IMG/VR virus record: IMGVR_UViG_3300021964_000052
Coordinates: 1,258 to 65,257 of that record
DNA length: 64,000 nt
Strand: one strand, 5' to 3'
DNA from: a virus
Lineage: Duplodnaviria > Caudoviricetes
Shown: positions 19,301 to 50,541 of the stretch, piece after piece
How positions within the stretch are numbered: the stretch's first letter is position 1
Layout: every line of letters starts with the position of its first letter
Program-made: the position numbers and the translations under genes
The notes under the pieces: model-generated
The model's database searches: none
Seen by the model: the letters and a program-made list of their open reading frames with translations, nothing else
Told to the model about the DNA's origin: nothing

Positions 19301-21190
19301 AGATCCTGATATTGAACCTGTAATATATGATAAAGTAGGATCTTCGCTAAATCTTTTAGAACCAGTCACATAAAGGTATTCAACAGAAAAGCCAGTATCA
19401 TCTACTTTCTTAGCCATTAATATTTCTCCTCTAGCAAAACCACTTGCGTTAGCAACTGACATTGTAGTATCGGTAGCGGACATAGTTACTGAACCGGCTA
19501 ATACTACACTACCACTTCTTAAAGCTTGTAATGTAGTTCCATTTGATACCATTAATTGTCCACCGACAACGTTAACAGATTCTTTTTCAAATACTGTTGT
19601 TCTCAGCGTTCCTCTAACTCTTACATTTTCAAATTCAGCGGAACCATTACCTAGAGTATCTAATCTATATCCTTTTAATCCGCTTACAAAGTCAGAGGAT
19701 TCTATTCTTCCTGATGAATGTAGTACTAATCCTGTCTCACCTTCTGCATATTGTCCACCGAATCCAGAATTAGGAATAGATCTAATTTGAGTATTAGTAA
19801 CCTCCCATCCTGCTATTTTATTTCCTTGTTGTCCGAACATTGCAATGGAAGAAGATATATCTGTCCCTTGTCCGTCAAATATTTTTAATCCGTATAAGTC
19901 TCCTGCAGCATTAGATATTTCTCCTAGTCTAATTATTTCTGCTGAACCTGTATCGTAAATTTGTATGCGTTGAGTACTAGAATCTATGTCGATAAAATTC
20001 GTGTCTAACTTAAATACCTCTGTCTTAATATCAACACCATTGGTTGAATCAAACCTTACGTAGTTAGTATTATCTTTAGTTAGGTCCAGGGTAGGAACTG
20101 TGTTGTTCATACCTATAATAATACCTGCAGTAGAGTCCTGGTCAAATGTTGTTTTTGATCCCATACGGATAAAGTTATCCGTTGCACCACCCTGTATTAC
20201 TACTTTATTAGCTGAACCGATATCTATACGAGATATATCTCCGTACATTACAATATTACCTTCTCCAAGTGACATAGATGCTTGAGTAGAAGATAATTCT
20301 ATGTTTGTAGCGTCTAATTCAAATCCACTTGTAAGAATATTAACATTGGACCCGTCATACTTAATAAAGTTTGTTGAACCGTTACCGGCATAAAATCTAG
20401 GAGTGCCTGAGTTTTCCTGTAGCTGAATACCCTTAGAGGCAAAGGATGCACTGTGGATTGTTATACTACCGTCAGATGAGTCTATTATTAGATCATCTTT
20501 AAATATTCTAGATGAGTTAATTTCCCATCCTGCTATTTTACCTCCGGTAAATAATACAGCTGAACCAGTTATATCACCGCTTCCCTGTACTATAAAATTA
20601 TTAGAGTTAATAAATGTACCAGCATTTGTTGGTGAACCACTTATAAAGATACTAGAAGCAAATGCTCCTCCGGGTCTAGAAACTAAAACATCATCTTTAA
20701 TTTCAAATCCTCCTATAAGACCGGATGATGCTGTAATAGATCCTTCTAACCTTGCTCCGGAAGCAATAAGTTGTCCACTAGAAGATACGGCATATGTAGA
20801 ACCAAAATGTTGATAGAAAGGGTATCCCTTACTCTCATCTGGTTCTAAAGTAATATAGTATTCATCTGCTAAAAGTCTAGATGAAACTCCAACTGTTGAT
20901 CCAGGGGCTTTATTTTTATCGTATAAGGAAGAAGAACGAAAATCTATTACTAATGTACTTCCTGTAATTTGTCCATCTCCAAGAAAAATATCTGCTACAC
21001 TACCTCCATCAGTAAGGAAGTTACCGAATGCTTCGGAACCTACAGATATATCTTGTTCTTCACCATTAGCCTTATAAAGTACTAATATGTTATTGTTAAG
21101 TGAACTTGAGTAATAAAACGATCTAAAATTCGCATCTACCTCTTCATGAGTTAGAGGTTCACCTTTAATATCTCTAAACGTTAAAGCCAT
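13364..21190 (-). CDS. Long tail fibre (2608 aa) with C-terminal intramolecular chaperone (peptidase S74)
   Basis: SDNRLKENI...IGVVAQDV...[18 protein letters not shown]-terminus; Gly/Ser/Thr-rich beta repeats (G.IGGW.I); N-terminus paralogous to 21214..22827. Confidence 0.9.
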
Positions 21191-39706: not shown

Positions 39707-40190
39707 CTTTACCAGTATAACGTTCTCCTAATCTTTCGATTACAGCTTTCGCTTCATCTACAGTCATCCTAAAGAACTCTCTTTTATTATTAACTCTAAA
39801 GGACTCACAGTACCTATGAACTTCTTGTTCTAATTCGATACCATTGTAACAGCCAAAAGCCCAAGCTACCTCGAAGTCTTGTGCGACTCCGGTAGAGGCA
39901 TTTATCTGCTTTACTCTCTTAGATGGAGCATTCTTAGTATAACCTATCTTAACCATTCCAGGTATAGTGGGGTTGGTAAGTACATATACATATTGTTTAG
40001 ACGTATCTGGTGTATAAGTGAGTCTATTTGAACGTGCTGTATAGTAAGTAACGTCTTCCCAACCATCTTCTGCGGTATATCTCTCTGATGTACTGGGAGT
40101 AATAGTGAAGTATTTAACAGGAGAGTCTGTGAAGTCCTCAGTGGCTTTGATTAAACCTTCAGCTTTTTCTTTAGATATTCTTTGTATCAT
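39696..40190 (-). CDS. GIY-YIG / T5orf172-domain protein
   Basis: YVYVLTN...VKIGYT...R..QIN..TGV...LE..VH...REFF. Confidence 0.85.
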   Translation of the reverse strand: MIQRISKEKAEGLIKATEDFTDSPVKYFTITPSTSERYTAEDGWEDVTYYTARSNRLTYTPDTSKQYVYVLTNPTIPGMVKIGYTKNAPSKRVKQINASTGVAQDFEVAWAFGCYNGIELEQEVHRYCESFRVNNKREFFRMTVDEAKAVIERLGERYTGKDDK

Positions 40191-40211: not shown

Positions 40212-40245
40212 CTTAATATATGAATATTCTATCAAATATCCAACT
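40212..40245 (-). promoter_or_regulatory. Putative early/host-sigma promoter
   Basis: AGTTG-N20-TATATTAAG. Confidence 0.75.
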
Positions 40246-45635: not shown

Positions 45636-45651
45636 AAATTAATTTTTAAAG

Positions 45652-45725
45652 TAGTCCCTGTAGGAGTCGAACCTACAACCTCCTGATTCGTAGTCAGGTG
45701 CTCTATCCAATTGAGCTAAGAGACT
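45652..45725 (-). tRNA. tRNA-Arg(ACG), CCA not encoded
   Basis: AGTCTCT/AGGGACT acceptor, GCTC D-stem, CCTGA-CT-ACG-AA-TCAGG, GTAGG-TTCGACT-CCTAC. Confidence 0.95.
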
Positions 45726-49271: not shown

Positions 49272-49598
49272 CTATTCTCTGCTTTGTGACTGTTCCATCA
49301 TAGTTTCATAGTAAGGACTATTAACCATTTTTTCATTAAACGTTTTGTATACTGCCTTATTAGTCCCATACATATACAAAGGACCGTCATACTCATAAGT
49401 AATAAAAGGAATATTTTCTAAGTCAGTTTGACCTTGCTTAGGTTGATACTCAGGTTTAGAATATCTTCTTTTACTATCAAATGATCTAAACTCTCTAGAA
49501 GTTACTCTATACCATTTACCTTTGATTTCGACTTCCAATACTGCCTCAGTAGGAAAATCGTATACTAATTTTTCTAAATGTCCTTTTTTTTCTGCCAT
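49272..49598 (-). CDS. Hypothetical protein
   Basis: ORF track; AATAAAGGTTATG start. Confidence 0.75.
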   Translation of the reverse strand: MAEKKGHLEKLVYDFPTEAVLEVEIKGKWYRVTSREFRSFDSKRRYSKPEYQPKQGQTDLENIPFITYEYDGPLYMYGTNKAVYKTFNEKMVNSPYYETMMEQSQSRE

Positions 49599-49613
49599 AA
49601 CCTTTATTTCTAG

Positions 49614-49753
49614 TATCGGGGGAGGGACTCGAACCCTCGACCTCTTTGACCCTTTTGCTTTTTACGATCGATTATTACAAGTAATACTTTACGTTTAAGA
49701 ATTACTACGCTCCAGGTTAAGTCAAAACGAGCTACCTACTGCTCTACCCCGTT
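49614..49753 (-). ncRNA. tRNA-like RNA (140 nt) with a 70-nt insert in place of the anticodon loop
   Basis: AACGGGG/CCCCGAT acceptor, GAGC-AGTAGGTA-GCTC D arm, TTTTGAC/GTCAAAG stem, AGGTC, GAGGG-TTCGAGT-CCCTC T arm. Confidence 0.8.
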
Positions 49754-49760
49754 ATATTAT

Positions 49761-49794
49761 CTAAATATAAGAAAATACTATCAAATATCCAACT
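49761..49794 (-). promoter_or_regulatory. Promoter immediately upstream of the tRNA-like RNA
   Basis: AGTTG-N20-TATATTTAG. Confidence 0.75.
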
Positions 49795-50374
49795 GATACC
49801 CATTGAATGTTTTAATGTATTCAGTTAATTTTACTCTGTTTCCATCTTCAAACATTGTACCATTTCTAACCCATTTCTTTACGCTTCCTGGTCCTACTAG
49901 ATGAGCTGCAGCTAATAATCCAGACTCAGTAACTAATATTCCGTTTACTAACTGTCTATCATATTTTTTTATTTGTCTTTTAAGAACTTTCTTATTAGCT
50001 TTAAGAAGTTTGACTATAGCTTCTTCTTGAATGTCTGGAGAGTTTAAGAATTCGGCTCTACTTATATTGTAACCTAATCCTTTAAGAGTACTACTACCAA
50101 ACTGGTACTTTCCCATATACCCATATTGATTTACTACGTCATATCTATTACTTGATTCTCTATGTCCTAAATCATTTAAAAAACTATCTAGGTTAGGAAT
50201 CTCATCTATCATAACTGCTTCTATTTCTATTGGAATAGTAACTACCTCTTTAGCTTCTATTTCAGATATCTTTTCTATATTATGGTAAGCCATATAGCCG
50301 AACGATGCAAGCATAAAACTAAATAAAACAAATGCAAAGCCCAGAACGAATTCTATGTTTTCTAATTTTTTCAT
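49781..50374 (-). CDS. Lysozyme/transglycosylase-like protein with N-terminal TM anchor
   Basis: HRESSNRYDVVN.YGYMGKYQFG, F...P..QE, LAAAHL.G.G. Confidence 0.75.
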   Translation of the reverse strand: MKKLENIEFVLGFAFVLFSFMLASFGYMAYHNIEKISEIEAKEVVTIPIEIEAVMIDEIPNLDSFLNDLGHRESSNRYDVVNQYGYMGKYQFGSSTLKGLGYNISRAEFLNSPDIQEEAIVKLLKANKKVLKRQIKKYDRQLVNGILVTESGLLAAAHLVGPGSVKKWVRNGTMFEDGNRVKLTEYIKTFNGYQLDI

Positions 50375-50388
50375 ATTTAAGTTTTTGA

Positions 50389-50541
50389 TTAAAATAAATC
50401 TAAGAATGATGTGTTGATATTCTTATCTTTTAGTTTCTCATTTCTCTCATGAGTTTTAACTAATTTATCCGCTACTTGTCTTTCGAGCGGCTTTCTTTTT
50501 TTCCAAGTGGAAAATTTACCTTTAGGTTGTTTTTTAGACAT
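50389..50541 (-). CDS. 50-aa basic protein (not in ORF track)
   Basis: MSKKQPKGKFSTWKKRKPLERQVADKL...SFLDLF. Confidence 0.6.
   Translation of the reverse strand: MSKKQPKGKFSTWKKRKPLERQVADKLVKTHERNEKLKDKNINTSFLDLF

Follow-up and report, generated by a model that had tools for sequence, protein, structure and literature searches.

The window analyzed here comprises 64,000 nt and covers most of a 65-kb virus record of IMG/VR (IMGVR_UViG_3300021964_000052), which is estimated to be 40% complete. At positions 49614 to 49753, its minus strand carries the gene for a tRNA-shaped RNA of 140 nt, in which 70 nt (49651-49720) enclosed by an extended anticodon stem stand in place of the anticodon loop. 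A first-pass annotation made from the letters of the window had described a tRNA-shaped RNA with a structured 70-nt insert at this site, and 80 distinct homologues bear this description out. The element is built from the following features.

49614-49753, minus strand: the whole tRNA-shaped RNA gene, 140 nt, folding into a cloverleaf
49747-49753, minus strand: 5' strand of the acceptor stem, AACGGGG, with its partner CCCCGAT at 49615-49621
49729-49744, minus strand: D arm, GAGC-AGUAGGUA-GCUC, with A11:U24, G15, and G18G19
49721-49727, minus strand: 5' strand UUUUGAC of an extended anticodon stem of 7 bp, with its partner GUCAAAG at 49644-49650
49717-49720, minus strand: A/U bulge UUAA, restricted to the 5' strand, at canonical positions 34 to 37
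49714-49716, minus strand: 5' strand CCU of helix P2, which closes the insert, with its partner AGG at 49651-49653
49680-49706, minus strand: optional hairpin AGUAAU-U-CUU-AAACGUA-AAG-U-AUUACU, with which inserts belong to class B and without which to class A
49654-49677, minus strand: conserved core of the insert, UAAUAAU-CGAUCG-UAAAAAGC-AAA
49622-49643, minus strand: variable loop AGGUC and T arm GAGGG-UUCGAGU-CCCUC

At the top of the acceptor stem of the window copy, A1:U72 is paired, A2 and A71 form a mismatch, and the discriminator A is located at 49614. U8 and A9 are present between the acceptor stem and the D arm, and G26 follows the D arm. The 7-bp stem occupies the place where an anticodon stem of 5 bp is expected, and the 70 nt enclosed by it are composed of the UUAA bulge, the CCU/AGG helix, the hairpin, and an A-rich stretch with CGAUCG. 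The 3' strand of P2 runs contiguously into the 3' strand of the anticodon stem. The A-A mismatch at 2:71 and the initiator-like D and T arms, which had been noticed before, were recovered in the window copy, and the relatives have an initiator-type body. With respect to the pairings proposed earlier within the insert, the CCT/AGG helix (100% paired) and the hairpin were found to covary, and the inner GC/GC pairing was not.

A DNA contig from another sample spans 49550-49930 with 0 differences; since DNA contigs of other samples hold the identical stretch, the insert is present in the DNA. One other-sample DNA contig joins 49509 to 50016 and skips 506 nt including the element. This junction is weak, with 27 letters on the shorter side and a likeness of 85% used, and may represent a variant of a related phage without the element.

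Relatives were collected with sequence patterns. The body pattern (D arm and T arm, separated by a gap of 65-95 nt) gave 33 loci on viral contigs, about 26 of which were clear relatives. The pattern of the insert core gave 54 loci on viral contigs, roughly half of them chance matches in GC-rich coding DNA, and the insert pattern combined with the T arm retrieved 103 metagenome stretches. The pooled scans yielded 123 full copies, 80 of them distinct and belonging to classes A and B, plus 4 copies of a class C. The source contigs, about 130 in number and of viral or metagenome origin, are related to Flavobacterium phage immuto. The insert was kept in these homologues and is not unique to the window copy.

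Class A is formed by elements of 112-114 nt, while class B (140-144 nt), to which the window copy belongs, is class A plus the hairpin. This hairpin was cleanly absent in 19 of the 80 sequences and present in 61. The 137-nt elements of class C, known from 4 loci, have a different interior with two hairpins, and a corrected class C pattern returned only these 4 loci from the viral contigs. Inserts span 42-74 nt in total, and all three classes share the same tRNA body and the same gene contexts. Four of the element-bearing records (G004-G007) carry one copy each, which was the sole match of the covariance model at E ≤ 0.01 in three of the four.

The structure of these copies was evaluated by covariation in an alignment of the 80 distinct class A and B sequences (A1; 2,968 pair cells). 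Standard pairs were present in 93.5% of the cells compared to 82.2% in shuffles, with 0 of 500 shuffles reaching the observed value, and slid partners gave 33-51%. Double changes were found for 24 pairs. In the acceptor stem, pairs 3 to 7 covary, and 33-41 cells were changed on both sides at each of the pairs 3 to 6. The 7-bp anticodon stem was paired in 100% of the 80 sequences, with two-sided changes at 5 of its 7 pairs, as was the T stem, with such changes at 3 of 5 pairs. The D arm was also 100% paired, and its loop was invariant or nearly so; the same was true for U8, A14, G15, G18G19, A21, and the T loop UUCGA. Within the insert, P2 was paired in all 80 sequences, with UA (42) or CG (38) at column 41-111 and CG (53), AU (10), GC (8), UA (8), or UG (1) at column 42-110. 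The basal pair of the class B hairpin (49-81) was GC (24), AU (22), or GU (10), and its inner 3 bp were 100% paired in the 61 sequences that contain it. Since the homologues keep their pairing with double changes, the element is more than a chance arrangement.

Among the 17 sequences that had been found without use of the insert motif, the mean pairwise identity was 0.889 in the 3' core of the insert, compared to 0.951 in the D arm, 0.860 in the variable loop and T arm, 0.659 in P2, and 0.534 in the acceptor stem. The core is thus conserved to about the same degree as the T arm, and this indicates that the insert is probably a conserved part under selection; a spacer or a decaying insertion would behave otherwise. 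The top of the acceptor stem differs: no pair is formed at 1:72 in 41 and at 2:71 in 42 of the 80 sequences, and only 1 of 80 has Watson-Crick pairs at both positions. A frayed or irregular acceptor end is a trait of the family.

The D arm, variable loop, and T arm match bacterial initiator tRNA-fMet, represented by the Bacteroidota genes that were retrieved by the scans. Of the 80 sequences, 76 retain A11:U24, and 79 have an irregular acceptor stem top. Other initiator traits are gone, namely the CAU anticodon and the three G:C pairs of the anticodon stem, which is CUUUG/CAAAG-like here. By its nucleotide traits, the body is derived from initiator tRNA-fMet, yet the element is not one. Four covarying stems and the conserved core nucleotides are those of a tRNA, but the 7-nt loop with U33 and a defined anticodon is replaced by 42-74 nt.

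The insert pattern had no match in 185,579 prokaryotic species genomes (one genome per species). In the same genomes, the body pattern occurred at 28 places, none of which was a member of the family; most of them were ordinary initiator tRNA genes beside another T arm or a masked stretch. A blastn search of GenBank phages with the window region and a class B member returned matches to the T arm only and no homologue. As far as sequence comparison can tell, this tRNA-derived RNA family is real, conserved, and phage-specific. It is previously undescribed, Rfam does not contain it as a family of its own, and its carriers are uncultured marine and estuarine relatives of immuto. The literature searched, which excluded subscription journals and supplements, contained no description of the family and no mechanism for such inserts.

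Standard tools do not recognize the window copy. ARAGORN with default settings and Rfam at its gathering threshold both missed the element and reported only a tRNA-Arg(ACG) at 45651-45725 in the window. This ordinary tRNA, also on the minus strand and 4 kb downstream of the element, is the sole canonical tRNA in the window. When Rfam was searched at E ≤ 10, the window copy was matched only over its 18-nt T arm, and the tRNA family RF00005 gave no match to it. A class A relative with a short insert (L032) reached 33.7 bits with RF00005 and so exceeded its gathering score of 29. With introns allowed (aragorn -i), ARAGORN read the element as a tRNA interrupted by an “intron” of 65 nt, the anticodon being arbitrary. 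The covariance model R1, which was built from an alignment that contains the window sequence itself, matched the window element with 146.1 bits (E = 7.7e-35). A minimum-free-energy fold of 143 nt retained the acceptor, D, anticodon, and T stems, and the stems of the cloverleaf were kept in the corresponding folds of 8 of 8 members folded.

Membership in four known kinds of RNA was considered and rejected. The element is not a tmRNA because G3-U70 is present in 0 of 80 sequences, aragorn -m was negative, and a tag frame is not conserved; the Rfam tmRNA model matches the 18-nt T arm only, with 13.8 bits compared to a gathering score of 47. The missing G3-U70 pair had already been noted in the window copy. 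A tRNA with a group I intron was rejected on the basis of the inserts of 42-74 nt and of the absence of any match to an Rfam intron family at E ≤ 10, in agreement with the first-pass annotation, which had considered the insert too short. The core of a group I ribozyme (P3-P8) usually exceeds 200 nt. The view that there is no clean bulge-helix-bulge motif held as well, because the only bulge by the anticodon stem sits on its 5' strand; a tRNA with an intron of this type was rejected due to this lone bulge and the result for the splicing endonuclease domain PF01974, found in 0 of 5 element-bearing records, which are 40-73% complete. Among 14 control genomes, this domain was detected only in the 4 archaea. 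A YrlA/Y RNA-like match (RF02553) was partial, with 25.2 bits compared to a gathering score of 69, and fell on the boundary between a tRNA-Met gene and the element in L010. The Ro-binding stem of a Y RNA is formed from the termini of the RNA, whereas the termini form the acceptor stem in this family, which is the opposite topology.

The position of the anticodon argues for the absence of decoding. Among the 80 sequences, the bulge was TTAA in 67, TAAA in 5, ATTAA in 4, ATAA in 3, and TTATAA in 1, with a length of 4-6 nt, and its last two A residues and the following C were invariant. Canonical numbering, anchored by G26 and the AGGUC variable loop, places R32 and C33 inside the extended stem and the bulge at positions 34 to 37. 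Position 33 is consequently a paired C, and no anticodon triplet is constant. None of the excision models tried yielded a 7-nt loop with U33 or a constant anticodon. RtcB, tRNA_int_endo, and RNA_ligase were found in 0 of the 5 element-bearing records, these being only 40-73% complete, and a Pfam search of the window proteins revealed no enzyme for the repair or splicing of RNA. The standard code applies to the genome: in code 11, 67 open reading frames (ORFs) cover 92% of the window, with 42 TAA, 13 TAG, and 12 TGA stops. Since 42 of the 67 ORFs end in TAA and recoding was not seen, a tRNA reading the ochre codon is implausible. The element is probably not a decoding tRNA.

Two further features frame the element in the window.

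49764-49793, minus strand: promoter-like 30-mer GTTGGATATTTGATAG-N-AT-N-TTC-N-TATATT, with a TTTG box and a TAnnTTT-like box
49272-49598, minus strand: downstream ORF of 108 aa with no Pfam family; its ATG (49598) lies 15 nt past the RNA

The 30-mer ends about 10 nt before the first base of the RNA, and its boxes may correspond to the Bacteroidota promoter consensus. It occurs twice in the window and in 0 of 100 shuffles; the second copy (40215-40244, minus strand) precedes an ORF that starts at 40190 and codes for a T5orf172-domain protein. A sigma-70 scan gave a weak match at the 30-mer, and such matches are no commoner than in shuffles. The start of the RNA shortly after a promoter and its end 15 nt before the next start codon, both stated in the earlier annotation, agree with this layout, and the downstream ORF probably shares a transcript with the RNA in the window. 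Homologues of the 108-aa ORF follow the element in one cluster of neighborhoods (c33; L027, L035, and L060), and a homologue is present in Flavobacterium phage immuto without the element.

Clustering of the neighborhoods (ORFs within 4 kb on either side, 32 loci) resulted in at least five different ones. In 8 loci, a tRNA-Gln(UUG) gene ends 1-10 nt before the element, and in 1 locus a tRNA-Met(CAU) gene takes this position. Several relatives are separated by just 5-17 nt from the end of an upstream ORF; a separate promoter would not fit into this gap, so that these copies would be cut from longer transcripts. At other loci, an ORF often begins 8-21 nt downstream. A QueC-like gene ends 6-673 nt upstream of the element in 13 loci, with a product 68% identical to QueC of immuto (tblastn). 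The DNA after queC is a tRNA island in immuto, so that the adjacency to QueC was read as “tRNA island”. A functional link to queuosine or 7-deazaguanine genes, whose likely representatives (QueC-, QueD-, QueE-, and FolE-like ORFs) flank the element in 9-13 loci, was considered and dropped. On the immuto-like contigs (L011, L014, L019, L045, and others), QueC, confirmed by tblastn, is found around the tRNA island of the element; neighboring ORFs are, by their motifs, putatively QueD, QueE, FolE, TGT/DpdA-like, or thioredoxin. The tRNA island of immuto itself contains an 86-nt feature annotated as tRNA-Cys (L206:6176-6261, corresponding to 20246-20331 of the immuto record), which was not called by ARAGORN. 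With its acceptor stem, T arm, and odd middle, it may be another tRNA-like RNA of this island.

The minus strand carries all 67 ORFs of the window (≥70 aa, with overlaps filtered out). Pfam families identified comprise baseplate and tail-fiber proteins, glycosyltransferases, nucleases of the SegE and T5orf172 types, DUF932, and a DksA-type zinc finger. In culture, the closest relatives of the phage are Flavobacterium phage immuto and Tenacibaculum phage PTm1. The hexamer CGATCG occurs once in the 64-kb window (49665-49670, within the element), compared to 4.9 occurrences expected from base composition; GCGC (16 compared to 43.9 expected) and ACGT (107 compared to 188.7 expected) are also underrepresented.

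These data can be combined into a model of what the element may do. The reading that is favored, with moderate confidence, is that of a tRNA mimic, or natural tRNA scaffold, which is stable, does not decode, and displays a conserved RNA module. The RNA would be transcribed from its own promoter, as in the window, or within tRNA islands or operons, and its tRNA-like body would lead to excision by RNase P of the host and 3' processing enzymes (RNase Z), giving it a long life. It would not be used for decoding, since an RNA with no fixed anticodon and no 7-nt loop cannot decode, and the frayed initiator-like acceptor end would keep it from entering elongation. Its working part would be the conserved module at the anticodon end, which would bind a partner, most likely a tRNA-handling protein of the host or the phage. 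The RNA would act as a tRNA-scaffolded ligand or decoy and not as an adaptor. Among the three possibilities offered by the first-pass annotation, the tRNA mimic was the best fit, with a conserved body and core but a variable anticodon position; the anticodon nucleases, synthetases, and ribosome sensors named there would be candidate targets.

Evaluation of this reading needs to consider a number of observations that weigh against it. The scans with the insert motif contributed 63 of the 80 sequences, in which this motif is invariant by construction. The inner pairings of the core, P3 and P4, showed no covariation in alignment A1 because the core hardly varies. The folding energy of the whole RNA was ordinary (z = −0.63 relative to shuffles), and the insert alone had no unusual stability (z = +0.60), so that the case for a real element rests on conservation and not on thermodynamics. 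Contigs found in RNA libraries cover only 50138-50400 and 49404-49604, both outside the element. A base-pairing target above chance was not apparent: antisense matches to the transcripts of the window amounted to 46 9-mers compared to 36.5 expected and to 19 10-mers compared to 9.3 expected, with a maximum of 24 in shuffles. Complements of 12 nt in 3 Bacteroidota genomes were likewise scattered and at chance level. Across the 32 loci, there was no protein gene always adjacent to the element. Model R1 had 0 matches in the complete genome of immuto, a cultured relative without the element, which is therefore dispensable for that lineage. Finally, other viral initiator-like tRNAs (L333, L334, and L343) keep CAU beside a short insert, so that a pathway for the removal of inserts from phage tRNAs may exist and could act here.

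This last point leads to an alternative to the tRNA mimic, a real tRNA with a new short intron, the excision of which would generate the loop RCUUAAU/C with the anticodon UUA in most members, similar to the “enigmatic introns” of Lak phages. UUA at positions 34 to 36 followed by A37 is indeed found in 67 of 80 sequences by canonical numbering, the insert begins near the canonical 37/38 intron site, aragorn -i accepts an intron-bearing tRNA, the inserts in the other viral initiator-like tRNAs measure 16-36 nt beside an intact CAU, and conserved tRNA introns of phages have been reported in two papers (PMC6784885, PMC13037316). Nevertheless, the triplet varies between UUA, UAA, and AUA, together with the 4-6 nt of the bulge and a C at position 33. 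Moreover, a tRNA for the ochre codon would read through the 42 of 67 stops without any sign of recoding, the body has initiator features, conservation is higher in the core than in the exonic stems, a bulge-helix-bulge is missing, the inserts are far below the size of group I introns, and the three splicing genes were absent from all 5 records, incomplete as these are. The intron-containing tRNA proposed in the earlier annotation is disfavored for the lack of any splice model with a 7-nt loop and is regarded as quite unlikely. If the RNA were instead a cis element, it could mark a cleavage site for RNase P or RNase Z in a polycistronic transcript or protect the 5' end of an mRNA, with the insert as filler. 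The layout of the window, with a promoter-like box about 10 nt upstream and an ORF 15 nt downstream, and the ORFs often found 8-21 nt downstream at other loci would fit. The tRNA-like 5' leader suggested before may accordingly describe the transcript of the window, but in many relatives the element directly follows a tRNA or an ORF, and a leader falls short because it leaves the conserved insert unexplained. The flanking genes differ over the at least five contexts, an ordinary tRNA would do as punctuation, and filler would not hold an identity of 0.889, which makes a cis role improbable. A decaying tRNA pseudogene, broken by an insertion, would agree with the failure of the default tRNA finders, but 80 distinct copies keep both their core and, by compensatory changes, their stems, and each genome fragment has a single conserved copy. 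This possibility is refuted by the covariation and given practically no credence. Almost as little is given to a miniature rescue RNA similar to tmRNA, in which GCA or GCG after the closing helix would open a very short frame ending with UAA or UAG. In-frame A*, AK*, AEK*, AKLNFNVKGNL*, and similar peptides exist across the members, but stops are expected that often in A/U-rich sequence. The length of the frame and its register with the conserved UAA vary, the register being lost in the 144-nt forms; the D arm and the anticodon stem are both complete, and the tmRNA searches mentioned above were negative. The missing alanine identity pair effectively refutes it.

Another reading specifies what the tRNA mimic may do. 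As an anti-defense decoy, the RNA would soak up or block a tRNA-targeting nuclease or tRNA-modifying toxin of the host, with binding provided by the tRNA body and with a replaced loop that is not productively cut. Phage tRNAs that counter tRNA-cleaving defenses exist. The occurrence on phage and metagenome contigs only, the retention of a single copy even where the model finds no other tRNA in the record, and the intact body without a cleavable 7-nt anticodon loop are consistent with a decoy, and rapid swapping of modules on a constant body would suit an arms race. On the other hand, no defense system or nuclease was linked to the element, the anticodon stem is unlike those of the tRNAs of 3 Bacteroidota genomes (4 chance-like matches; none of the three is a known host), and a pure decoy has no need for so conserved a core. 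Such a decoy is judged unlikely. The notion of an RNA-based counter-defense, in which the module at the loop site traps or blocks a tRNA-directed immune nuclease or toxin of the host and the three modules record an arms race, is put forward tentatively and is likewise held to be unlikely; in a bolder variant compatible with the data, palindromic loops would link copies into dimers or chains tipped with tRNA bodies. Alternatively, the RNA may associate with itself by kissing contacts of palindromic loop hexamers, namely CGAUCG, UACGUA (in 27 of the 61 class B hairpin loops), and AUGCAU or GUGCAC in class C, which would lead to dimers or larger assemblies with tRNA bodies at their tips. A covarying stem of 3-4 bp in class C presents G-AUGCAU-A in 3 loci and A-GUGCAC-A in 1, and this two-sided change of the loop preserves the self-complementarity. 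However, 6-nt palindromes were not above shuffles in 10 of 10 representatives (P = 0.19-0.43), the predicted accessibility of the hexamers ranged from 0.00 to 0.98 between members, CGAUCG never varies, and just one compensatory event is in support. Self-association as the function of the element is very improbable.

The non-decoding tRNA mimic can be compared to several known systems. Devoto et al. (2019) reported “enigmatic” and “highly conserved” introns in tRNAs of the Lak megaphages, which infect Prevotella, and described them as the first reported in phages (PMC6784885); a survey of jumbo phages from 2026 repeats the observation of tRNA introns (PMC13037316). The Lak introns are similar in being short inserts in tRNAs of Bacteroidota phages that are neither group I introns nor obvious bulge-helix-bulge introns and that are conserved between genomes. 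By their published description, however, the Lak tRNAs have normal anticodons (for example, Tyr GTA and Thr TGT) and were read as true tRNAs, whereas the family has a variable anticodon position and an initiator-like body. Engineered “tRNA scaffold” RNAs, which carry a recombinant RNA at the anticodon stem for stable expression (PMC3753655), share the architecture of the family, in that a foreign structured RNA is attached to the anticodon stem of an otherwise complete tRNA body. In these scaffolds, processing and stability are due to the tRNA body; they are man-made, and the family would be a natural counterpart.

A second group of RNAs with partial likeness comprises two small stable RNAs of phage T4 that have been known for decades, RNA C (species 1, 139 nt) and RNA D (species 2, 119 nt), which are encoded directly after tRNA-Arg. 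RNA C resembles the family in its size, its T arm (CCGGG-UUCGAAU-CCCGG), its paired ends, and its place in a phage tRNA cluster, and 9 loci of the family are similarly located beside tRNAs. It differs by a minimum-free-energy fold with two long hairpins instead of a canonical D arm and anticodon stem and by the phylum of the host, and no sequence similarity was noticed, a model-based comparison not being part of this. The roles of RNAs C and D were still called unknown in two publications (PMC3014915, PMC9697503). The tmRNA is comparable insofar as a tRNA-like acceptor and T arm are joined to a domain not derived from a tRNA, but the family possesses a full D arm and anticodon stem and does not have G3-U70, pseudoknots, or a conserved tag frame. 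tmRNA also occurs in some large phages. The bulge-helix-bulge introns of archaeal and eukaryal tRNAs and the group I introns of bacterial tRNAs interrupt their genes likewise at or near the anticodon loop, and a group I intron is known from a cyanobacterial initiator tRNA.

Since inserts were found in other viral initiator-like tRNAs, interrupted tRNA genes of phages are a broader phenomenon, of which the family is, to judge from its nucleotide features, a distinctive and presumably non-decoding branch. The family indicates that at least some “intron-bearing phage tRNAs” are better read as tRNA-derived non-coding RNAs. With 80 sequences, covarying helices, three modules on one body, and an anticodon position apparently free of decoding constraint, the family is a well-populated test case; it would be ready as a new RNA family for the databases and provides a defined RNA of 112-144 nt for experiments. 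If the decoy or scaffolded ligand were true, it would be a new class of RNA in the conflict between phages and their hosts among the abundant marine Flavobacteriia.

Other interrupted genes were encountered during the scans. Initiator-like or Met tRNAs with inserts of about 16-36 nt in or beside the loop are located at L333:8125-8220, L347:9101-9196, L334:8438-8526, L343:803-900, and L345:6523-6630. The copy in L333 reads CTCAT, 23 nt, and AA; tRNAs of this type keep CAU, are unrelated in sequence to the family, and look like true interrupted tRNAs. Several interrupted tRNA-like genes, one with an insert in the D loop, are present in L332 (762-902, 2915-3027, 7219-7342, and 1531-1614) and in L024 (1778-1924 and 2090-2206), the latter with an array of 28 tRNA genes. 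L332/L341 and L024 have a GGGAGTAATT motif in an initiator-like body in common. Outside the viral contigs, initiator-like D and T arms about 90 nt apart, in an arrangement unlike that of a second tRNA, were found in metagenome-assembled genomes of the Armatimonadetes (L075:4762-4879) and the Akkermansiaceae (L079:2354-2472), and these two loci may be insert-bearing tRNA-like genes of bacteria or prophages.

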